DNA from: an uncultured Flavobacterium sp. | GTDB taxonomy: Bacteria; Bacteroidota; Bacteroidia; Flavobacteriales; Flavobacteriaceae | Reading direction: 5' to 3' | Assembly (NCBI GenBank): GCA_964021805.1 | Contig: CAXHZP010000008.1 | Coordinates: 917 to 64,916, forward strand | Length of the DNA stretch: 64,000 nucleotides | Shown here: positions 9,416 to 33,662 of the stretch, piece by piece | Layout: each line of letters opens with the position of its first letter | How positions within the stretch are numbered: position 1 is the stretch's first letter | The notes under the pieces: model-generated | The model's database searches: none | The model's input: the letters and a program-made list of their open reading frames with translations, nothing else | Told to the model about the DNA's origin: nothing | Program-made: the position numbers and the translations under genes

Positions 9416-9423
9416 CATATTTG
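9416..9423 (+). promoter_or_regulatory. Putative -7 promoter element (CATATTTG) of the ilv leader
   Basis: One mismatch to Bacteroidota TAnnTTTG; 8 nt before the leader ATG. Confidence 0.45.
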
Positions 9424-9431
9424 TATGAGTA

Positions 9432-9485
9432 ATGAATACAAAGCAAGAACATATTATTTCTTCAATTATTGGTTTAAATCCGTAA
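9432..9485 (+). CDS. ilv operon leader peptide MNTKQEHIISSIIGLNP (17 aa)
   Basis: Manual translation; two Ile-Ile pairs (all ATT) plus Leu, upstream of a terminator preceding ilvD. Confidence 0.75.
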   Translation: MNTKQEHIISSIIGLNP

Positions 9486-9517
9486 CCAAGGGAATGGTAT
9501 TTTTAAATATAAAAAAC

Positions 9518-9547
9518 AAAGACCTTCTTGAAACGGAGGTTTTTTTT
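9518..9547 (+). terminator. Attenuator terminator of the ilv leader
   Basis: AAAGACCTTC-ttgaaac-GGAGGTTTTTTTT. Its 5' arm can alternatively pair with CAAGGGAATGGT (9487-9498). Confidence 0.75.
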
Positions 9548-16515: not shown

Positions 16516-18096
16516 ATGATGAATATACCAGATCAATATCAAATCAAGAAAACAATTTCTCAAAACACCTATTTAGTTGATGGTGTTTTAAAAACTTGGA
16601 CAGGTGAGACAGCAGATGTGTACTCCACTATTTCCTCAACAGATACATATAAGCCAACATTATTGGGCTCTATTCCTCAGTTAGGTGAAGAGCAAGCAAA
16701 TGAAGCGTTGAATTCTGCTTGTAATGCTTTTGATAGAGGAAAAGGACTTTGGCCAACAATGAAAGTTGTCGACAGAATTGCCTGTATGGACAAGTTTGTG
16801 GCTCAAATGAAAACCAAACGAGAGGAAATTGTTAACCTATTAATGTGGGAAATTGGAAAAACACTCCCAGATTCACAGAAAGAATTTGATAGAACCATAG
16901 ATTACATTTATGATACTATTGAAGCTTATAAACAAATGGATAGAGACAGCGCAAAGTTTAAAAAAAATAGCGGTGTCAATGCTCACATTAGAAGAGGACC
17001 TTTAGGAGTAGTTTTGTGTCTAGGACCTTATAACTATCCATTAAATGAAACTTTTTGTTTGTTGATTCCTGCACTAATTATGGGAAATACAGCAATTTTT
17101 AAGCCTGCCAAATTTGGGGTATTATTAATTTCACCTTTAATGGAAGCATTTCAGAATAGTTTTCCAAAAGGTGTGGTAAATATTATTTATGGTAGAGGTA
17201 GAACCTTGGCTACTCCTATTATGAAATCAGGTAAAATAGATGTTTTAGCTTTAATTGGACATAGTTCATCAGCAAAATCTTTACAAACTCAACACCCAAA
17301 AGTTAATAGATTGCGTTTAGTTTTAGGTCTTGAAGCAAAAAACCCCGCAATTATATTACCAGATGCAGATTTAGATGTGGCTATAGAAGAGTGTATAGCA
17401 GGATCTTTGTCATTTAACGGACAACGCTGTACAGCTTTAAAAGTATTATATGTTCATGAAGATATTGTTGAAAAATTTAACAAGCTATTTTCTGCACGAG
17501 TTGATGAGTTGTCATTTGGAAACCCATGGGAGCCTGGAGTTAAATTAACTCCTTTACCTGAACCAAATAAACCTGCATACATTCAAGGATTGATAGATGA
17601 TGCTAAGAAACACGGTGCCACTATTTTAAATGCTAAAGGTGGTGAAACTTTAGATAATTATATATTTCCAGCTGTTTTATATCCAGTTAATAAGCAAATG
17701 GAAGTATTTCATGAAGAGCAATTTGGTCCTGTAGTTCCTATAATTTCTTTTAAAGATATTAATGAACCTTTAAATGATATTGCAGATTCTAATTATGGAC
17801 AACAAGTTAGTTTATTTGGAAAGGATGTTCACACTTTATCTCCTTTAATAGATAGTTTGGTGAATCTAGTTTGTAGAGTAAACTTAAATAGTTCCTGCCA
17901 ACGTGGTCCAGATGTATATCCTTTTACAGGGAGAAAAGATTCTGCTGTGAGTACTTTAAGTGTTTACGATGCTTTACGTTCTTTTTCAATCCGTACTTTT
18001 GTTGCCTCTAAAGACAATCCTTACAATAATTCTATTCTTGAAGAATTACTAGAAAAGAAGACATCTAACTTTATAAGTACAGATTATATATTGTAG
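16516..18096 (+). CDS. gapN: Aldehyde dehydrogenase superfamily protein, probable NADP-dependent non-phosphorylating glyceraldehyde-3-phosphate dehydrogenase
   Basis: [19 protein letters not shown] catalytic Cys, EEQFGP, and [15 protein letters not shown] typical of GAPN-like enzymes. Confidence 0.8.
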
Positions 18097-18181
18097 AATA
18101 GTTATTTTTAATATGCCATTTTTGTATTTCTTTTAATTAAAAGTTTCTTATTTAAGAAATACATAAAACTTCAAAAAAATG

Positions 18182-18208
18182 ATTTTGGAACCATTGTTGT
18201 TCCAAAAT
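18182..18208. promoter_or_regulatory. Inverted repeat ATTTTGGAAC-N7-GTTCCAAAAT overlapping the arg promoter
   Basis: Perfect 10-bp arms straddling the putative -33 TTG; either an operator or a gapN 3' hairpin. Confidence 0.45.
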
Positions 18209-18223
18209 AATTTTGCATATTTG
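18194..18223 (+). promoter_or_regulatory. Putative arg operon promoter TTG-N19-CATATTTG
   Basis: Matches Flavobacteria -33/-7 spacing; ends 4 nt before the leader ATG. Confidence 0.6.
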
Positions 18224-18227
18224 AACG

Positions 18228-18296
18228 ATGTTAAGTCTAAAAAATAGTACATATATAGTTTCTAACGCAATGCCCAAGAGCTTGCGCCGCCGCTAA
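18228..18296 (+). CDS. Putative arginine-sensing leader peptide MLSLKNSTYIVSNAMPKSLRRR (22 aa)
   Basis: Manual translation. Its only Arg codons are CGC CGC CGC immediately before TAA; it lies directly upstream of the arg operon. Confidence 0.75.
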   Translation: MLSLKNSTYIVSNAMPKSLRRR

Positions 18297-18450
18297 TTCT
18301 TAAAATTAGCATACAACTATATTCACTATTTATTTTTAAACATTGTTCACTTCCCATTTCATATCATTTTTTTTATCTCCAGTTATTGTAAAAGATAACA
18401 AGACTTCTCCGCGTACTTTTTTTTCACGTCGCCCTTAGGGTGTATGCTAA
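18292..18450 (+). promoter_or_regulatory. Putative attenuator switch of the arg leader (alternative pairings around a rut-like tract)
   Basis: GCTAATT(18292-98) pairs with AATTAGC(18304-10), or TTAGCATACA(18306-15) pairs with TGTATGCTAA(18441-50). 18311-18380 has 15 C and 1 G. Confidence 0.55.
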
Positions 18451-18532
18451 ATTTTTGAACTCAGGTGAGTCCGGTTCTATTTTCTATCAAAACAGTTTAA
18501 AATAAAGTTTACAATCAATTCAAATTATCATT

Positions 18533-19174
18533 TTGGAAATTATTATTGCTAATAAATCGCATGCTATTTATGCAAAGATTATTTGTAAAACTATTGCTGA
18601 TTCTGCCAACGTAAGAGGAACAGGAATAGCAAAAAGAACTACAGATTACATCATTCAAAGAATGAATAATCAAAATGCTGTCATAGCACTTGATGAAGGT
18701 AATTTTGTAGGTTTTTGTTATATAGAAAAATGGGGGCATGGCAGGTTTGTAGCTAATTCAGGATTGATAGTGCATCCAGATTACAGAGGGAGAGGAATTG
18801 CTAAACTTATAAAAGAGAAGGTGTTTATTCACTCTCGATTAAAATTTCCAGAAGCTAAAGTATTTAGTATAACCACTGGATTGCCTGTCATGAAAATGAA
18901 TAGTGATCTAGGGTATAAGCCAGTAACATTTTCGGAGCTAACTAAAGATCAATCATTTTGGAATGGATGTCAAACCTGTAAAAATTATGATGTTTTACAG
19001 AGAACATCGCAAAGTATGTGTTTGTGTACTGGGATGCTTTATGATCCTCAAAAGGTAGAGGAACCATCGAAAAAAATATCAATAAAAGTCTTTAAGAGAT
19101 TAAAACAAATAAAGCAAGCACTCTTTTTAACAAAATCTTTTAAAAAGTTCACCAAATTAAAAAATGTAAAATGA
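18533..19174 (+). CDS. GNAT-family N-acyltransferase, probable Bacteroidota N-acyl(succinyl)glutamate synthase (ArgA function)
   Basis: RGTGIAKR, FVANSGLIVHPDYRGRGIA acyl-CoA motif, FWNGCQTC..CLC; first gene of the arg operon; TTG start. Confidence 0.8.
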   Translation: MEIIIANKSHAIYAKIICKTIADSANVRGTGIAKRTTDYIIQRMNNQNAVIALDEGNFVGFCYIEKWGHGRFVANSGLIVHPDYRGRGIAKLIKEKVFIHSRLKFPEAKVFSITTGLPVMKMNSDLGYKPVTFSELTKDQSFWNGCQTCKNYDVLQRTSQSMCLCTGMLYDPQKVEEPSKKISIKVFKRLKQIKQALFLTKSFKKFTKLKNVK

Positions 19175-19205
19175 ATCACCAACTACAAAAATTAAATTAA
19201 AAATT

Positions 19206-20390
19206 ATGAAAAAGAAACTTGTATTAGCATATAGTGGTGGATTAGATACGTCTTATTGTGCTGTTTATTTTTCTAAATATTTAGATTATGAAGTTCATGC
19301 TGTATCTGTAAACACAGGAGGTTTCACTGAATCAGAAATTGAAACCATAGCGGAGAAGGCTTATGCTATGGGCGTAAAAACATATCAAAATATCAATGCA
19401 GTTGAATCGTACTATCAGAAAGTGGTGAAATTCTTAATTTTTGGGAACGTTTTAAAAAACAATACCTATCCATTATCTGTAAGTGCCGAAAGAAGTATTC
19501 AAGCAGTAGAAATTATTAAATATGCTAAAAAAATAAATGCAGATTATGTAGCTCACGGAAGCACAGGTGCTGGTAATGATCAAGTTAGGTTTGATTTAAT
19601 TTTTCAAACACTAGCTCCTGAAATAAAAATTATTACTCCTATTAGAGACCAACATTTAACAAGACAAGAAGAAATTCAATTTTTAATAGCTAATGGAATA
19701 GAGTTGACTTGGTCTAAAGCCAAGTATTCAATTAATAAAGGGCTTTGGGGAACAAGTGTTGGAGGTCAGGAGACACTTACTTCTCATCTTCCTTTGCCTG
19801 AAGAAGCTTATCCATCACAGTTACAGAAAAAAGATGAACAACAAGTGCAATTAACTTTTTCTAAAGGAGAACTGATTTCAATTGATAACCAAGAAGGAAC
19901 GCCGCAAGATGTCATTGAAAAACTAAACAAACTAGCCTCTAAATATGCAATAGGAAGAGATATTCATGTAGGTGATACCATTTTAGGAATTAAAGGAAGG
20001 GTAGGTTTTGAGGCAGCAGCAGCTAATATTATAATTAAATCGCATCATTTGCTAGAAAAACATACCCTAACAAAATGGCAATTACAGCATAAAGAATACT
20101 TGTCTAATTGGTATGGGACTCATTTACATGAAGGATTATTTTTAGATCCAGTGATGAGAGATTTAGAATCTTTTTTAGAAAATAGTCAAACACAGGTTTC
20201 AGGTCATGTTTATGTGAGCTTAAAACCATATCATTTCACAATAGATGGTATAGCATCTGAAAATGATTTGATGGATACTGATTTTGGAACCTATGGCGAA
20301 GAAAATAAACGTTGGACAGCAGATGAAGCAAAAGGATTCATTAAAATATATGCAAATCAAAGTATAATCTTTCAAAATACACACAAATGA
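19206..20390 (+). CDS. argG: Argininosuccinate synthase
   Basis: LAYSGGLDTS, HGSTGAGNDQVRF, IKGRVGFEA. Confidence 0.97.
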   Translation: MKKKLVLAYSGGLDTSYCAVYFSKYLDYEVHAVSVNTGGFTESEIETIAEKAYAMGVKTYQNINAVESYYQKVVKFLIFGNVLKNNTYPLSVSAERSIQAVEIIKYAKKINADYVAHGSTGAGNDQVRFDLIFQTLAPEIKIITPIRDQHLTRQEEIQFLIANGIELTWSKAKYSINKGLWGTSVGGQETLTSHLPLPEEAYPSQLQKKDEQQVQLTFSKGELISIDNQEGTPQDVIEKLNKLASKYAIGRDIHVGDTILGIKGRVGFEAAAANIIIKSHHLLEKHTLTKWQLQHKEYLSNWYGTHLHEGLFLDPVMRDLESFLENSQTQVSGHVYVSLKPYHFTIDGIASENDLMDTDFGTYGEENKRWTADEAKGFIKIYANQSIIFQNTHK

Positions 20391-21364
20391 TACAAGCAGG
20401 AATAATTGGAGGAGCTGGGTATACAGCAGGTGAATTAATTAGAATTTTATTAAATCATAAAGAAGTTGCAATTAACTATATCTATAGTACCTCAAATGCT
20501 GGGAATAAAGTGAGTGCTATTCATCAGGATTTGGTAGGTGATACAGATTTAATTTTTTCTAGTAAAATTAATTCAAATGTTGATGTACTATTTTTATGCT
20601 TAGGACATGGAAATTCAAAAGATTTCTTAGTTAAGACAGCTATTTCATCATCTACAAAAGTTATTGATTTAAGCACAGATTTTAGGCTTAAAAATGATGC
20701 TATTTTTCAAGGAAGAGAATTCGTGTACGGGTTGCCGGAACTTCATAAAGAAAAAATTAAGAATGCTGATAATATTGCAAATCCAGGTTGCTTTGCTACT
20801 GCATTACAACTGGGTTTGTTACCTCTGGTATCTAATCATTTAATACATGATGATATTCATATAAATGCAGTGACTGGTGCAACTGGCGCTGGAACCTCAT
20901 TATCAAAAACTTCTCATTTTACATGGCGAGATAATAATTATTCTTACTATAAACCTTTTGATCATCAACATTTAAAAGAGATATATCAATCGGTAAAACA
21001 GTATCAAGATGAGTTCTCCTACGGCATTAATTTTATTCCAACTAGAGGTAATTTTTCCAGAGGAATTTATGCCACTATGTACACTCAATTTTTAGGGAGT
21101 TTAGAAGATGTGATTAGTGTTTATAATCAATTTTATAAAGATGCTGCTCTAACTTTTGTTACCCATCAAGAATTGCATTTAAAGCAAGTTGTTAATACTA
21201 GTAAATGCTTAATTCATATATCTAAGCATAAGAACAAATTACTAATAACTAGTTGTATAGATAACCTATTAAAAGGTGCGTCGGGTCAAGCAGTTCAAAA
21301 TATGAATTTAATGTTTGGATTTGATGAATCTGAGGGTTTGAAATTAAAAGGAACATATTTTTAA
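20387..21364 (+). CDS. argC: N-acyl-gamma-glutamyl-phosphate reductase
   Basis: GGAGYTAGEL, IANPGCFAT, DNLLKGASGQAVQNMN. Confidence 0.97.
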   Translation: MIQAGIIGGAGYTAGELIRILLNHKEVAINYIYSTSNAGNKVSAIHQDLVGDTDLIFSSKINSNVDVLFLCLGHGNSKDFLVKTAISSSTKVIDLSTDFRLKNDAIFQGREFVYGLPELHKEKIKNADNIANPGCFATALQLGLLPLVSNHLIHDDIHINAVTGATGAGTSLSKTSHFTWRDNNYSYYKPFDHQHLKEIYQSVKQYQDEFSYGINFIPTRGNFSRGIYATMYTQFLGSLEDVISVYNQFYKDAALTFVTHQELHLKQVVNTSKCLIHISKHKNKLLITSCIDNLLKGASGQAVQNMNLMFGFDESEGLKLKGTYF

Positions 21365-21376
21365 AATAAATAAATT

Positions 21377-22177
21377 ATGAAAATAGCAATCATAGGGACA
21401 GGTAATTTAGGGTGCTCTATAGCCACGGGGTTAATTACTCAAAATGCAATTACCTCATTGTATTTAACCAGAAGAAATTTAGAAAATATTAAAGAATATA
21501 AAGGGTATTCAAATGTCTTTTTGACTTCTGATAATAGAAAAGCAGTTAAAAACTCTGACATTTTAATTTTTGCTGTACAACCTGGACATTTAGAAGGAAT
21601 TTTAAATTCTATTAAAGATTTGCTCACAGAGAAGCATGTTATAATTTCTACAATTACTGGTTATTCTGTTTCAAAAATTGAAGATAGTATAGGTATAGAT
21701 AAGTATGTTGTAAGAGCCATGCCTAATACTGCCATAGCTGTAAGTAAATCTATGACTTGCTTGAGTAGTAATAAAAAAGGGGCAGAAAGAATTAAAATAG
21801 CTGAAGCTATTTTTAACAGGTTAGGTACATCGATAATTATTCCAGAAAATCAAATGCAAGCAGCCACGGTAATATGTGCTAGCGGAGTGGCTTTTTGGAT
21901 GCGATTAATTAGGGCAACAACTCAAGCTGCAATTCAGTTGGGGTTTGATGCGCATGAAGCACAAAAATTATCTATGTATACCTCTGAGGGAGCAGCACAA
22001 TTATTAATAGCAACTGGAAATCATCCAGAGGAAGAAATAGATAGGGTAACCACTCCTAATGGATGTACTATAGAAGGATTAAATGAAATGGAACACAAAG
22101 GCTTAAGCTCTTCTTTGATTCAGGGAATGGTAGCATCTTTTAATAAAATAAATAGTATTAAAACAGATCAAATATGA
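21377..22177 (+). CDS. proC: Pyrroline-5-carboxylate reductase
   Basis: GTGNLG, VRAMPNT, VTTPNGCTIEGL. Confidence 0.95.
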   Translation: MKIAIIGTGNLGCSIATGLITQNAITSLYLTRRNLENIKEYKGYSNVFLTSDNRKAVKNSDILIFAVQPGHLEGILNSIKDLLTEKHVIISTITGYSVSKIEDSIGIDKYVVRAMPNTAIAVSKSMTCLSSNKKGAERIKIAEAIFNRLGTSIIIPENQMQAATVICASGVAFWMRLIRATTQAAIQLGFDAHEAQKLSMYTSEGAAQLLIATGNHPEEEIDRVTTPNGCTIEGLNEMEHKGLSSSLIQGMVASFNKINSIKTDQI

Positions 22178-23301
22178 GTTTATTTAATGTATATCCGTTA
22201 TTTGACATCAGGCCTGATACAGCTAAAGATGTTTTTATTTATGATGAAGATGGAGTAGAGTATTTAGATCTATATGGAGGGCATGCCGTTATTTCTATTG
22301 GTCACTCTCATCCGAAATATGTTTACAATATTGCCAAACAAATTAATAAAATAGGATTTTATAGTAATTCTATACAAAATCCTTTGCAAAAAGAACTCGC
22401 TGAAGAACTGGTAGAGGCTTCAGGGTGCAATGATTATCAATTATTTTTGTGCAACTCGGGTGCAGAAGCGAATGAAAATGCATTAAAACTAGCATCTTTT
22501 CACACGAAGAAGAAGAAAGTTATTGCCTTTAAAAATGGTTTTCATGGAAGAACTTCAGCTGCAGTAGCAGTCACAGATAACTCCAAAATAATTGCACCAA
22601 TTAATGCACAACAAGAAAAAGAGCTATTTGATTTGGGAGATATTACTGGGGTAGAGAATGCATTAAGTAATAATGATGTTTGTGCGGTTATTATAGAATG
22701 CGTTCAAGGCGTAGGTGGATTAGATGAAAGTACAACGAGTTTTTATAAAAGGTTGTATCATCTATGTAAAAAATTTAATGTGGTACTCATTGCAGACGAA
22801 GTTCAATCTGGTTTTGGAAGAACTGGTGATTTTTTTGCGTTTCAAAAACATAAAATTATCCCTGATATTATATCCATGGCAAAAGGAATGGGTAATGGTT
22901 TTCCAATTGGCGGAATTTTAATTCATCCAAAAATAAAAGCTTCTTTTGGTCTATTGGGAACAACCTTTGGAGGAAATCATCTAGCCTGCATAGCTTCTTT
23001 AACAGTTCTGGAGGTAATCAAAGCAGAAAAACTTCAAGAAAATGCAAAGATGATTTTTGATTATTTTAAAAAGAAAAGCCAATCATTGCCTCATTTAAAA
23101 GCTGTAAAAGGGAGAGGGCTAATGCTGGGGTTAGAGTTTGATTTTCCTATATCAGAACTAAGAAAAAAACTTATCTACAAGCATCACATTTTTACAGGAA
23201 ATGCTAAGAACCCGAATGTGTTAAGAATTTTGCCATCTCTAACTATACAGAAGAAGCATGTAGACGTGTTTTTTACGGCTCTAAAAACAGAAGTATTATG
23301 A
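22174..23301 (+). CDS. argD: Acyl-ornithine aminotransferase (class III)
   Basis: NSGAEANENA, FHGRT, DEVQSGFGRTG, MAKGMGNG; arg operon context. Confidence 0.93.
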   Translation: MSLFNVYPLFDIRPDTAKDVFIYDEDGVEYLDLYGGHAVISIGHSHPKYVYNIAKQINKIGFYSNSIQNPLQKELAEELVEASGCNDYQLFLCNSGAEANENALKLASFHTKKKKVIAFKNGFHGRTSAAVAVTDNSKIIAPINAQQEKELFDLGDITGVENALSNNDVCAVIIECVQGVGGLDESTTSFYKRLYHLCKKFNVVLIADEVQSGFGRTGDFFAFQKHKIIPDIISMAKGMGNGFPIGGILIHPKIKASFGLLGTTFGGNHLACIASLTVLEVIKAEKLQENAKMIFDYFKKKSQSLPHLKAVKGRGLMLGLEFDFPISELRKKLIYKHHIFTGNAKNPNVLRILPSLTIQKKHVDVFFTALKTEVL

Positions 23302-24233
23302 AGAAATATTTAACAATTAATGATATAAAAAATATTGAGCATACTGTTCAAGAAGCTATTCAATTAAAAAACAATCCCTATCAATTTGAAAATTTAGGCA
23401 AGTATAAAACCTTGGTAATGCTTTTTTTTAATGCTAGCCTAAGAACTAGGCTAAGCACTGAAAAAGCTGCGAAGAGTCTTGGGATGGATGTGATGGTTCT
23501 AAATATTAATGATTGTTGGAATTTAGAGTATGACAATGGAACTATTATGAATCTTGCTAAAGCAGAGCATATTAAGGAAGCTGCTAATGTTATATCTCAA
23601 TATGGAGATATTATAGCTATTAGAGCATTTCCTACCCTTACAAACAAGGAAAAGGATGAAACAGAGCAGGTGCTTCATAGTTTTGTAAAATATGCTTCAG
23701 TACCAATTGTTAATATGGAAAGTGCTACGGCACACCCATTGCAGGCGCTTGCTGATGCTATTACTATTAGTGAATTTAAAACAACTTCAAAACCAAAAGT
23801 TGTCTTAACCTGGGCGCCTCATCCAAAAGCATTACCTCATGCTGTAGCGAACTCTTTTATTAAAATAATGAAAGAAATAGATGTAGATCTTTTGATTACG
23901 CATCCAAAACACTATGAATTAAATTCCAATATTACTCAAGATGTTCCTATAATCAATAACCAAGAAGAGGCTTTGAAAGATGCGGATTTTGTATATGCTA
24001 AAAATTGGAGTAATTATCATGATTACGGTAAAATTGTATCTGTAGATGAAAACTGGATGCTAACTAATGAGAAATTAGGAAATGCAAAGTTTATGCATTG
24101 TTTACCAGTAAGAAGAAATGTTGTTGTAGAAGATGCAGTTTTAGATGGTGAAAACTCGCTGGTGATTGAACAAGCAAATAATAGAACTTATGCGGCTCAA
24201 ATAGTGTTAAAAAATATTTTAAAAACATTGTAA
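23298..24233 (+). CDS. argF: N-acylornithine carbamoyltransferase (ArgF'), probably N-succinylornithine-specific
   Basis: SLRTR carbamoyl-phosphate motif, HPLQ, HPKALP, HCLPVRRN (AOTCase/SOTCase signature), KAEH at the specificity site. Confidence 0.9.
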   Translation: MKKYLTINDIKNIEHTVQEAIQLKNNPYQFENLGKYKTLVMLFFNASLRTRLSTEKAAKSLGMDVMVLNINDCWNLEYDNGTIMNLAKAEHIKEAANVISQYGDIIAIRAFPTLTNKEKDETEQVLHSFVKYASVPIVNMESATAHPLQALADAITISEFKTTSKPKVVLTWAPHPKALPHAVANSFIKIMKEIDVDLLITHPKHYELNSNITQDVPIINNQEEALKDADFVYAKNWSNYHDYGKIVSVDENWMLTNEKLGNAKFMHCLPVRRNVVVEDAVLDGENSLVIEQANNRTYAAQIVLKNILKTL

Positions 24234-25012
24234 TGAAAACACTAAAAGTTATAAAAATAGGCGGAAATATCATAAATAACGAGGTTAGTTTACTCTCTTT
24301 TTTAAAAGATTTTTCAAGTTTAAATGGACCAAAAATTTTAGTTCATGGAGGAGGTAAATTAGCTTCAGATTTATCTAACAAAATGAATATTCCAGTTCAA
24401 TTAATAGATGGAAGAAGGGTTACAGATGCAGAAACTTTAGACATTATAACCATGGTTTACGCCGGTAAAATAAACAAAAATATTGTAGCTAAACTACAAA
24501 GTTTTGGATGTAATTCTGTTGGGTTTTCTGGCGCAGACGGAAATACAATTATTGCTAATAAAAGACCTGAATCTCCAATAAATTATGGTTTTGTAGGAGA
24601 TGTAGTAAAGGTTAATATAAGTGTTATTAAAATATTGATAGACAATAATATAACAAATATTTTTTCTGCAATATCTCATAATGAAAAAGGACAATTGTTA
24701 AATACAAATGCAGATACTATTGCTTCCGAATTAGCGATTGCTTTTTCGAATGATTATAAAGTTGAATTGTATTATTGTTTTGAAAAAAAAGGGGTACTAC
24801 AGCGAACAAATGATGAAAACTCTGTGATTAAAGAAATAAATAATCAAACGTACATAGAATTAAAAAAATCTAACATAATTAATGAAGGCATGATTCCTAA
24901 ATTAGATAATTGTTTTTATGCGCTAAATCATAATGTTTCAAAAGTTTGTATAGGGCATCCTACCATGCTTTTTGATCATCATTCTAACTTTACAACCATT
25001 CAAAAATTATGA
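24233..25012 (+). CDS. argB: N-acylglutamate kinase
   Basis: VIKIGGN, VHGGG, LNTNAD, GMIPKL. Confidence 0.95.
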   Translation: MKTLKVIKIGGNIINNEVSLLSFLKDFSSLNGPKILVHGGGKLASDLSNKMNIPVQLIDGRRVTDAETLDIITMVYAGKINKNIVAKLQSFGCNSVGFSGADGNTIIANKRPESPINYGFVGDVVKVNISVIKILIDNNITNIFSAISHNEKGQLLNTNADTIASELAIAFSNDYKVELYYCFEKKGVLQRTNDENSVIKEINNQTYIELKKSNIINEGMIPKLDNCFYALNHNVSKVCIGHPTMLFDHHSNFTTIQKL

Positions 25013-26100
25013 GAAAAGAAAAATTAATTTTAGAGGCCATTTCACTATTAAAAAGTTTAATAAAAACACCTTCATTTTCTTCTGAAGAACATCATACAGC
25101 TTTGTTAATAGAATCTTGGTTTCAAGATTCTGATATCTCTTTCAATAGAACTAATAATAATATTTGGGCCATTAATAAATATTTTGATGAAACAAAGCCA
25201 ACCCTTTTGTTGAACTCTCATCATGATACTGTGAGACCTAATAATGGATACACCAAAGATCCTTTTGACCCAATTATTAATGCTGGTAAACTATACGGCC
25301 TTGGTAGTAATGATGCTGGAGGATGTTTGGTTTCTTTATTGGCAACATTTTCTTTTTTTTATCATCACAAGAATTTAAAATACAATTTGGTTATGGTAGC
25401 TTCAGCAGAGGAGGAAAGTAGTGGAGAAAATGGATTAAACAGCATGCTGTCTATTATACCTGAGATATCTGTAGCTATTATCGGAGAACCTACCTTGATG
25501 CAATTAGCCATTGCAGAAAAAGGATTGATAGTTTTTGATGCCAAAGTAATTGGTACCCCTGGACATGCTGCTCATAAAAATGATGATAATGCCATTTATA
25601 ATAGTATAGAAGTGCTAAAGTGGTTTCAGGAGTATACATTTGAAAAGCATTCGGAAAGCCTAGGAGATGTAAAAATGACAGTTACCCAAATACAGGCAGG
25701 TAAGCAACATAACGCCATCCCTTCTGAAGTAACTTTGGTGGTAGATGTTCGTGTAAATGATAGGTATTCAAATAAAGAAATTGCTGAGATTTTGGAAAAT
25801 GAATCTCCCTGTTCTACCATTGTTCCAAGGAGTTTACGATTAAACTCTTCCTCTATATCAGTTGAACATGACCTAATTAAAGCAGGTTTAGAATTGGGTA
25901 GAGAGACTTATGGATCTCCAACATTATCCGATCAATCTGTTTTAAGTTGTCCTTCTTTAAAATTGGGTCCTGGAGACAGTACGAGATCACATACCGCGGA
26001 TGAATTTATTTATTTGAAAGAAATTGAAGAGGGGATTACCCTTTATATTAAATTATTAGAAAAAACATTAATAGATACTAAAGATGAAGCTCTGGGATAA
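25009..26100 (+). CDS. argE: M20 family deacylase (ArgE-like; probable N-succinyl/acetyl-citrulline deacylase)
   Basis: NSHHDTV, GSNDAGG, AEEE, GEPT, HTADE; arg operon context. Confidence 0.85.
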   Translation: MRKEKLILEAISLLKSLIKTPSFSSEEHHTALLIESWFQDSDISFNRTNNNIWAINKYFDETKPTLLLNSHHDTVRPNNGYTKDPFDPIINAGKLYGLGSNDAGGCLVSLLATFSFFYHHKNLKYNLVMVASAEEESSGENGLNSMLSIIPEISVAIIGEPTLMQLAIAEKGLIVFDAKVIGTPGHAAHKNDDNAIYNSIEVLKWFQEYTFEKHSESLGDVKMTVTQIQAGKQHNAIPSEVTLVVDVRVNDRYSNKEIAEILENESPCSTIVPRSLRLNSSSISVEHDLIKAGLELGRETYGSPTLSDQSVLSCPSLKLGPGDSTRSHTADEFIYLKEIEEGITLYIKLLEKTLIDTKDEALG

Positions 26101-27358
26101 AGGAATAAAAATAGATGAAAAAATAGAACAGTTTACTGTTGGGAATGACAGGGAAATAGATATGCACATAGCAAAATATGATGTAAATGCTTCATTAGCA
26201 CATGCAAAAATGTTGTTTTCTATAGGTATTATAACAGCAATAGAACTTCAGCAATTAGAGAAAGGATTGTCAATTTTAGAAAAACAAATCCATGAAGGAA
26301 CATTTGTTATTGAATCTCAATTTGAAGATGTACATTCAAAAATAGAATTTGAATTAATCAACATGTTTGGAGAGGTTGGTAAAAAAATTCATACAGCACG
26401 GTCTAGAAATGATCAAGTATTGGTTGCTTTGCAGTTGTACTATAAAGATCAATTACAAACAATAAAAGGGCTAGTGGGTACTTTTTTTGATACATTGTTA
26501 AACCTTGCAGAACTTCATAAAAAATGCTTATTACCAGGGTATACACACCTTCAAGTAGCTATGCCATCTTCATTTGGGTTATGGTTTTCTTCCTATGCAG
26601 AGGTAATTGTAGATGATGTATATCTTCTAGATGCTGCTATTAAAACAATAGACCAAAATCCACTTGGTTCTGCGGCAGGTTATGGAAGTTCATTTCCAAT
26701 AGATAGAAATTTTACAACTACAGAACTTGGTTTTGGTGCACTTAAGTACAATGTTATAGCTGCACAAATGGGAAGGGGTAAAAATGAAAGAACAATTGCA
26801 GCTGCATTGGGAGGTATTTCAAACACTTTATCTAGGTTTTCAATGGATATTTGTTTGTATATGAGTCAGAATTTTGACTTTATTACTTTTCCAGATTCAT
26901 TAGTCACAGGAAGTAGTATCATGCCACATAAAAAAAATCCTGATGTATTTGAATTAATAAGAGGAAAGTCAAATAAAATTCAAGCTTTGCAGATAGAAAT
27001 GACTTTAATTACAAATAATCTTCCGAGTGGCTATCACAGAGATTTTCAACTTCTCAAGGAAAATATGATTAATTTAATTGAGGAAATGAAAACCATTTTA
27101 GAAATTTTCAATTATTCGATACAGCAAATAAAAGTGAAGAAGATAGATTTTTTAGATGATAAATATAAGTATTTAAGTACAGTAGATTCTATCAATAATT
27201 TAGTGATGAAAGGACTTTCTTTTAGAGAGGCATATCAACAAATAGGGGCTTCAGTAACAAACCGAACTTACGAGTATACGGTTGGAAAAGAACACACCCA
27301 CATTGGTAGTATTCATAATTTATGTCTAAATGATATTAGAAAAAAATTTCCTAAATAG
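26084..27358 (+). CDS. argH: Argininosuccinate lyase
   Basis: KLWDKG, HTARSRNDQ, PGYTHLQ, GSSIMPHKKNPD. Confidence 0.97.
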   Translation: MKLWDKGIKIDEKIEQFTVGNDREIDMHIAKYDVNASLAHAKMLFSIGIITAIELQQLEKGLSILEKQIHEGTFVIESQFEDVHSKIEFELINMFGEVGKKIHTARSRNDQVLVALQLYYKDQLQTIKGLVGTFFDTLLNLAELHKKCLLPGYTHLQVAMPSSFGLWFSSYAEVIVDDVYLLDAAIKTIDQNPLGSAAGYGSSFPIDRNFTTTELGFGALKYNVIAAQMGRGKNERTIAAALGGISNTLSRFSMDICLYMSQNFDFITFPDSLVTGSSIMPHKKNPDVFELIRGKSNKIQALQIEMTLITNNLPSGYHRDFQLLKENMINLIEEMKTILEIFNYSIQQIKVKKIDFLDDKYKYLSTVDSINNLVMKGLSFREAYQQIGASVTNRTYEYTVGKEHTHIGSIHNLCLNDIRKKFPK

Positions 27359-33464: not shown

Positions 33465-33472
33465 TACATTTG
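33465..33472 (+). promoter_or_regulatory. -7 promoter element TACATTTG for the thr leader/thrABC
   Basis: Perfect TAnnTTTG; ends 4 nt before GTG 33477. Confidence 0.6.
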
Positions 33473-33476
33473 ATCT

Positions 33477-33572
33477 GTGATACAAACTATAGGATATATA
33501 ACTAATACACTACAAAACAATAAAATAGTCAATTTATTTGTGATTATTTTCATTTCTACTATTACCCTTTAG
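33477..33572 (+). CDS. Putative thr operon leader peptide MIQTIGYITNTLQNNKIVNLFVIIFISTITL (31 aa, GTG start)
   Basis: Manual translation; 8 Ile + 5 Thr, clustered as IIFISTIT before the stop; upstream of thrA. Confidence 0.6.
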   Translation: MIQTIGYITNTLQNNKIVNLFVIIFISTITL

Positions 33573-33586
33573 GGGTATATTTTTTT
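33563..33586 (+). terminator. Terminator-like hairpin overlapping the thr leader stop
   Basis: TACCCT-tta-GGGGTA followed by TA and T7. Confidence 0.5.
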
Positions 33587-33662
33587 CATATAAAACAGGT
33601 TAATAATTCGAATTTCGATAGCATCGAAAAATCTATATAAATTTTCTCAAAACTTTTATAAA

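Follow-up and report, generated by a model that had tools for sequence, protein, structure and literature searches.

A candidate arginine-codon-reading leader with two short frames in series upstream of the arginine operon of Flavobacteriaceae

Arginine biosynthesis is a textbook example of repressor control through ArgR. In the Flavobacteriaceae no ArgR was detected in any of 151 genomes of the family, in a search whose B. thetaiotaomicron control was positive. The operon of the uncultured Flavobacterium sp. considered here is preceded by a leader of about 310 nt, within a 64,000-nt stretch of DNA (the window; the parts of the leader and the operon lie on its + strand). By its sequence this leader very probably senses Arg-tRNA, in that ribosomes reading two tandem mini-ORFs would report on the supply of arginyl-tRNA. 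An earlier note on the same DNA had likewise proposed that the leader reads arginine by means of ribosomes, which holds in outline; however, the conserved sensor is quite probably the second frame (ORF2) with the hairpins H3 and H4, and not the RRR end of the first frame (ORF1).

The arginine operon and the distribution of its leader

As delineated by a Pfam scan together with the ORF lists, the regulated operon (18533..27358) has the order GNAT-argG-argC-proC-argD-argF'-argB-argE-argH, with an argA-like GNAT protein in the first position, a carbamoyltransferase between argD and argB, and an argE-like M20 deacylase ahead of argH; on the Pfam evidence it encodes the whole arginine pathway. Two -7 boxes of the Bacteroidetes type, TAATTTTG (18208-15) and CATATTTG (18216-23), precede the leader and follow the pattern TAnnTTTG, which we take to be the Bacteroidetes promoter consensus. 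Family loci show a clustering of the same pattern immediately 5' of their first leader ORF, and the positions of the boxes here would imply a transcript start about 0-8 nt ahead of the ORF1 AUG. At 18182-18208, between an aldehyde dehydrogenase gene and the arg promoter, there is a 10-bp hairpin followed by AATTTTG. This hairpin, which overlaps the arg promoter at its -33 region, probably serves to terminate the upstream gene.

At its other end the leader closes with an A/U-rich spacer (18478..18532; G 3.6%, C 14%), which runs from H4 to the GNAT gene. The start codon of this gene (18533) is TTG here and in the nearest relatives, and the aligned position is ATG in all other members of the genus. 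The distance between H4 and the GNAT start is variable because insertions of 30-70 nt, some of them hairpin-forming, are found between the two in six loci (L018, L057, L059, L068, L070 and L085). Near-identical copies of the leader were also encountered in contigs of marine metatranscriptomes from separate studies (runs X2 and X3, over 17900-19600) and related copies in contigs of two other runs (X1 and X8); given the identity or near-identity of such contigs to the leader, this organism or a very close strain was present in those seawater samples. The metatranscriptome contigs break at 18410-18428 and at 18453, differently in different studies, at a T8 run.

Orthologous leaders were assembled from 25 relatives, 30 further loci of the genus and 80 other genera of the family. 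A covariance model of the H3-H4 element (R1) yields one strong match per genome in 94 of the 151 sampled genera of Flavobacteriaceae; argG is present in 101 of the 151, and the 94 genera with the motif all belong to these. The matches invariably lie just upstream of GNAT-argG, on the same strand and 0.7-1.2 kb from argG, and no match was obtained in 136 genomes from 17 other families of the order. When 17900-18800 was searched against Rfam with cmscan at E<=10, the sole hit was a chance snoRNA match outside the leader (E = 4.5), and no specific description of an arginine leader, or of an amino-acid leader dependent on Rho, came out of a literature search on flavobacteria and Bacteroidetes. The control region is uncatalogued and common to most arginine-making Flavobacteriaceae. 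The motif was not found in seven argG-positive genera (genomes G313, G331, G368, G372, G395, G399 and G400), nor in any of the nine genomes sampled from a large genus of the family (g168), and arginine regulation in all of these may be different.

Two leader frames and their RNA structures

ORF2 (18343..18438) is a 31-codon leader frame that starts with TTG and ends in S-R-R-P-stop, its Arg codons being CGT (18412-14), CGT (18427-29) and CGC (18430-32). If the frame is set by the last CGC-CCN codons, it is open for at least 20 codons 5' of H3 in all 123 distinct loci of the family, as compared with 25/123 and 14/123 for the other two frames. The start codon is ATG in 66 of these loci, TTG in 46 and GTG in 11, with many relatives having ATG at the very same place, and the TTG start in the present genome counts against the reading that we prefer below. 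Between two and five Arg codons fall within the last ten codons of ORF2 in the family loci, where CGC occurs 212 times, CGT 160 times and AGA 7 times; CGC and CGT together account for 372 of 399, against a genome-wide Arg usage of 64% AGA and 2.8% CGC. In the close clade there was no sign of purifying selection on the peptide outside the Arg codons, and an excess of changes at third codon positions was found for neither ORF1 nor ORF2. The lack of selection at the peptide level is as expected of a leader peptide, yet it provides no added support for translation. ORF2 is quite probably the main sensor, and the comparative evidence favors ORF2 with H3 and H4, rather than ORF1, as the sensor conserved across the family.

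Three hairpins are associated with this frame. H2 (18382..18399) is a 6-bp hairpin within ORF2, in which RNAalifold finds five of the six pairs changed on both sides among 20 sequences of the genus; an H2-like hairpin is also seen inside the single leader frame of the Maribacter clade. H3 (18430..18442; CGCCC-UUA-GGGUG, P 0.77) has the last Arg-Pro codons of ORF2 as its 5' arm and the stop codon in its loop, and in the family sequences too the loop usually contains the ORF2 stop. Among 98 sequences 92% of the H3 cells are paired, a GU pair has become GC in nine, and there is one double change from CG to AU. H4 (18457..18477) consists of GAACU, a CA bulge, GG, a UGAGU loop, CC and GGUUC, and is followed by UAUUUUCUAUC; six of its eight pairs are changed on both sides, and the lower stem covaries. 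Taken together, H3 and H4 have 90.8% of cells paired in the 98 sequences and a covariation score of 0.191, as compared with 0.120 in shuffles (0/500 reaching it).

The apex of H4, A-GG-UGNGU-CC, is practically invariant (95-98 of the 98 sequences), and a compensating double change from GC to AU in its apical pair is seen in Psychroflexus. The two Psychroflexus loci concerned (L103 and L110) have the variant apex AGAUGAGUUC, in which this G-C to A-U change keeps the apical pairs as GA/UC, and a Mariniflexile locus (L111) has another apex on the same lower stem.

Several further interpretations of these hairpins were tried and set aside. H4 was considered as a DNA operator, but its variation is of the G.U type, its core is asymmetric and it is invariably on the transcribed strand. 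H3 as a ribosome-occluded terminator would be covered by a ribosome at the Arg codons and at the stop alike, and the U residues that follow it are interrupted. An antiterminator formed by the H3 3' arm and GUCC of H4 would have only four weak pairs, and masking of the 5' arm is without effect; a pairing between UUCUA of the spacer and the 5' arm of H4 is present in some genera and is not conserved; and a comparison by eye of H4 with tRNA, T-box and SD elements gave no support for any of these.

ORF1 (18228..18296) is a 22-codon frame ending in L-R-R-R-stop, with three CGC codons at 18285-93. Arg-rich frames of the ORF1 type were found in 82 of the 123 family loci. ORF1 is missing from the Maribacter/Muricauda/Zobellia clade, in which an ORF2-type frame lies directly 3' of the promoter, and it is frameshifted in one close relative (G172, locus L031) by a 2-nt insertion at the equivalent of about 18247. 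In that relative only a short internal frame, M-P-K-S-x-R-R-R, is still in frame with the Arg codons. We regard ORF2 as the apparently ancestral frame and ORF1 as a first stage that would have been added in some clades.

The RNA around ORF1 is predicted to be extensively folded. The local pairing described in the earlier note is recovered: GCTAATT (18292-98), which runs across the last Arg codon (CGC) and the TAA stop of ORF1, pairs with AATTAGC (18304-10) in a 7-bp hairpin over the ORF1 stop (H1, 18292..18310; ensemble P 0.975). A hairpin of the form GCUAA-N5-9-UUAGC recurs in several genera, and the local window of H1 has a mean z of merely -0.5 over 82 loci. In the MFE structure H1 forms the tip of a long imperfect hairpin (18222..18349), in which the ORF1 body is paired with the G-poor tract between the two ORFs. 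The base of this domain is an 11-bp helix between 18222-32 and 18339-49 (P 0.935), which brings together the regions of the ORF1 AUG and the ORF2 UUG and is retained in all eight close-clade genomes, with two independent compensatory double changes. Pairing between the two start regions was rejected as a family-wide trait and is clade-specific, the mean energy being -6.0 kcal/mol for a leader's own regions and -5.1 for cross-species combinations.

In general terms, however, the folding is a family-wide property: ORF1 with the next 55 nt folds far better than shuffled sequences, z being -6.3 in this leader and averaging -2.36 for the 81 two-ORF loci, of which 62 are below -1; these scores come from mononucleotide shuffles, and thermodynamic predictions are rough for RNA as AU-rich as this. 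The tract that had been read as unstructured is instead the predicted 3' strand (18304 to 18349) of the long hairpin with the ORF1 body, with z = -2.4 family-wide. The fold around ORF1 is thus predicted to be ribosome-sensitive, with the ORF1 body, and not 18441-50, as its partner. As the G-poor tract with the ORF2 start is predicted to be paired to the ORF1 body, translation of ORF1 would control access to the start of ORF2 rather than the folding of a terminator.

Composition of the leader and possible means of termination

The composition given in the earlier note is confirmed, with 15 C and a single G in 18311..18380, a tract made up of the U-rich spacer between the ORFs and the first 13 codons of ORF2. 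Windows of 70 nt with at most one G and at least 15 C constitute 1.8e-4 of all windows of the genome and form 98 clusters, and typical upstream regions of this genome have 13% G and 12% C. In 120 loci the excess of C over G extends from -180 to -1 relative to H3 and is seen again from +60 to +89 after it, with flanks that are neutral or G-rich. In the family the spacer after H4 has on average 5.4% G and 15.1% C, with C exceeding G in 115 of 126 loci, although about 5% of the start regions of this genome are as skewed and G-poor as the spacer here. A rho gene is present in the genome. A C-rich, G-poor stretch that a stalled ribosome could cover is found in and next to the uORF, part of it being predicted to be paired. 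The earlier idea of a plain Rho-loading site does not fit, in that the tract is coding from 18343 onward and there belongs to ORF2. Nor would the tract be a textbook unstructured rut site, being short, translated in part and, with no ribosome on ORF1, predicted to be paired.

No stable hairpin followed by a U tract was found ahead of the first structural gene; as the earlier note had already stated for the spacer, a terminator scan of 18297-18532 returned no hairpin with a T-tract. Two other amino-acid leaders of the same window provide a comparison. The ilv leader (9416-9547) has a strong canonical hairpin with T8; it contains more G than C and is free of C>G skew. The thr leader (33465-33662) has a small hairpin at 33563-77, TACCCT-TTA-GGGGTA, followed by T7; this hairpin has the same form as H3 and likewise overlaps the end of its leader frame.

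The complete reading that we tentatively favor, with a confidence just short of evenly balanced, is that of a two-stage attenuator that senses arginine codons, lacks a canonical terminator and may be ended by Rho. Ribosomes held at the RRR codons of ORF1 would keep the G-poor tract single-stranded, because it is the ORF1 body that pairs with the tract carrying the ORF2 start, and ORF2 would then be translated. When arginine is scarce, ribosomes would stall at the Arg codons of ORF2, where they would shelter the stretch of leader with C>G skew; when it is plentiful, they would terminate and leave, the leader RNA would lie bare, and transcription would end before the first gene or early in it. 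We infer a factor-dependent termination because no canonical terminator is conserved and because occupancy of H3 leaves H4 unchanged in silico: in folding of 129 loci, the probability of H4 was unaffected by masking of the H3 5' arm. The factor would most likely be Rho, loading on the C>G leader, and H4 with its pyrimidine tail might serve as a pause or release site.

Rho is ranked first because the C>G skew is conserved, rho is present, and tnaC, speFL and cruR provide precedents for a uORF coupled to Rho. Rho-dependent attenuation is a reasonable hypothesis and a role of Rho is plausible from the composition of the leader; as the terminating agent, taken by itself, Rho is a tentative choice with somewhat less than an even chance. 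Bacteroidota have a Rho with a large N-terminal insertion. For the termination step we place a Rho-dependent stop before a weak intrinsic stop at H4, and the latter before the action of a factor or ligand on H4. The two-stage model assigns no function to the invariant H4 apex, which counts against it, and none of the models that we considered explains this apex.

The best surviving alternative, which we nevertheless judge unlikely, is that H4 with its U/C-rich tail is itself a weak intrinsic terminator, possibly aided by NusA/NusG, so that the leader would be a classical attenuator with an unrecognised antiterminator. In favor of this proposal the tail here, UAUUUUCUAU, has six U in nine nucleotides and the family consensus of the tail is nC-UUU-C-AAAA. 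The thr leader joins a similarly small hairpin to its T7, and outgroup families have a hairpin with a U-rich tail at the equivalent place (e.g. L021 and L025). The thr-like tail of the present leader may speak against the Rho model and leave room for an intrinsic stop. However, the dG of H4 is just -4.7 kcal/mol here (family mean -6.4, range -4 to -9), and the nine-nucleotide tail has anything from zero to six U across the family and only zero to three in the Maribacter/Muricauda clade, despite an H4 that is otherwise identical. H4 was not called by the terminator scan, no alternative pairing dependent on a ribosome on ORF2 removes it in silico, and an invariant apical loop is not a property of terminators.

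A second alternative is that a trans-acting factor or small ligand, such as a regulatory protein or free arginine, binds to H3-H4, above all to the H4 apex and its bulged A, and so would provide a second input besides codon reading. We consider it rather improbable. It would account for an apex that is preserved while the stem beneath it covaries freely, and which no cis partner explains: the only cis candidate joins CGCC of H3 to GGUG of H4, both of them invariant, and by eye the nucleotide preceding CGCC shows no covariation with the loop N. The predicted probability of H4 in the ensemble is also low here (0.04-0.14) despite its strong conservation, as if it were stabilised by something. On the other hand, the element is very small, the Pfam scan identified no candidate protein encoded in the operon, and the frames with their Arg codons already supply a sensor. 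As H3-H4 is present in a single copy per genome and always at the arg operon, there is no regulon to back a riboswitch or a protein regulon; a fold recurring ahead of several linked genes, the hallmark of riboswitches, is not what was found, the element amounting to two small hairpins. Less probable still is a combined form, in which the H4 apex (bulged A, two G-C pairs and UGNGU loop) would be the receptor for free arginine or an RNA-binding regulator, acting beside codon reading and with Rho ending transcription.

It is also conceivable, though distinctly improbable, that ORF2 is an arrest peptide (...R-R-P-stop) that stalls ribosomes at its stop codon, possibly in answer to free arginine and in the manner of TnaC, SpeFL, CruR or the fungal arginine attenuator peptide, rather than a reader of hungry codons. 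TnaC ends in R-P-stop. CruR ends in RAPP (PMC12360218), and ORF2 resembles both in its Pro-stop ending. An R-P-stop end is found in 85 of the 123 loci, and the C-terminal pattern F-x-x-R-R-P is kept across genera. Yet the Pro-stop is not obligatory, for 38 of the 123 loci continue in frame for 2-12 codons after the Pro. The R-P can moreover be explained at the level of RNA, because CGCCC doubles as the arm of H3, and the bias towards the rare CGC and CGT in runs of two to five Arg codons is what codon sensing would produce. A stall at high arginine would, in addition, have to shut the operon off, which calls for an extra and unexplained step.

The mechanism proposed in the earlier note is the least probable of all. 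It held that a ribosome stalled at the RRR of ORF1 frees 18304-15 to pair with 18441-50, thereby hiding the C-rich tract from Rho. Both complements of such a switch are indeed present, TTAGCATACA (18306-15) being the exact reverse complement of TGTATGCTAA (18441-50), and when the 20-nt target segment is shuffled, 98.7% of the shuffles give a weaker duplex. In the close clade of eight genomes the sole variable pair, 18312:18444, is U-A here, a compensating C-G in G013, C.A in three genomes and C.C in one. However, the conservation to be expected of a functional pairing does not appear in the aligned leaders: a perfect helix is confined to this leader and that of a single relative, four of the six nearest relatives have a mismatch, the helix is broken in the two most distant members of the close clade, and it is lost further out. 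Among 13 other members of the genus the median energy of the distal duplex is -6.0 for a leader's own segments, -6.1 for cross-species combinations and -6.2 for shuffled ones, and shuffling of the 305-nt leader produces a perfect inverted repeat of at least 10 bp in 9% of cases. Contrary to the expectation that a ribosome on RRR would favor the distal helix, ViennaRNA gives it a probability of about zero both in the free RNA and with RRR masked; about 12.7 kcal/mol would be needed to impose it. The distal partner (18441..18450) overlaps the 3' arm of the conserved H3, with which the helix would compete, by 2 nt, and is itself the ancestral end of ORF2, which reads G-V-C-stop in relatives. The switch also leaves out ORF2, which fills most of the supposed loop.

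Relation to known leaders and significance

The leader shares with trpL, hisL, leuL, thrL and the ilv leaders a short frame with tandem codons for the end product in the 5' leader of the cognate operon: clustered Arg codons lie in short frames, known from sequence, and these stand ahead of the arginine genes. As in the classical attenuators, the hairpins overlap the end of a frame and the logic would be one of starvation, stall and read-through. For F. psychrophilum, candidate leader-peptide elements at ilvE, hisG and the aromatic amino-acid gene pheA, along with the Rfam Bacteroidetes trp leader RNA, have been reported (PMC9723704); the leaders of that transcriptome paper include none for arg, and argG is missing from its supplementary tables. 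The present case differs from the classical attenuators in the amino acid sensed, as the literature search found no description of an arginine attenuator for Flavobacteriaceae. It differs further in having two frames in series, no conserved strong terminator, no recognisable pair of terminator and antiterminator, and a hairpin apex of invariant sequence.

The other group of relevant systems comprises tnaC, speFL and cruR, in which the rut site lies within the uORF or beside it and is shielded by a stalled ribosome (reviewed in PMC12360218). In the leader described here, too, a ribosome stalled on the uORF could shield C-rich RNA within or beside that frame, and a missing intrinsic terminator is likewise combined with the presence of rho. 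In contrast, their signal is a metabolite caught in the exit tunnel, whereas here it would be hungry Arg codons ahead of a biosynthetic operon; the peptides have no sequence similarity, and the dependence on Rho is putative in our case. As far as can be judged from its sequence, this leader would represent a novel form of leader-peptide attenuation, arginine-specific, built on two frames, marked by the family-restricted H3-H4 motif and without a canonical terminator.

A family that is abundant in the sea, and of which no sampled genome has ArgR, instead carries a conserved RNA leader with mini-genes rich in arginine codons. The R1 model of H3-H4 can be used at once for annotating such leaders. 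If our reading is true, arginine joins the amino acids that are sensed through the stalling of ribosomes, and these leaders are a natural case of two leader frames arranged in series. Should Rho be involved, the Flavobacteriaceae would possess a Rho-dependent attenuator of a biosynthetic operon that responds to hungry codons, and this in a phylum that departs from the model organisms in its Rho and in how translation is initiated.
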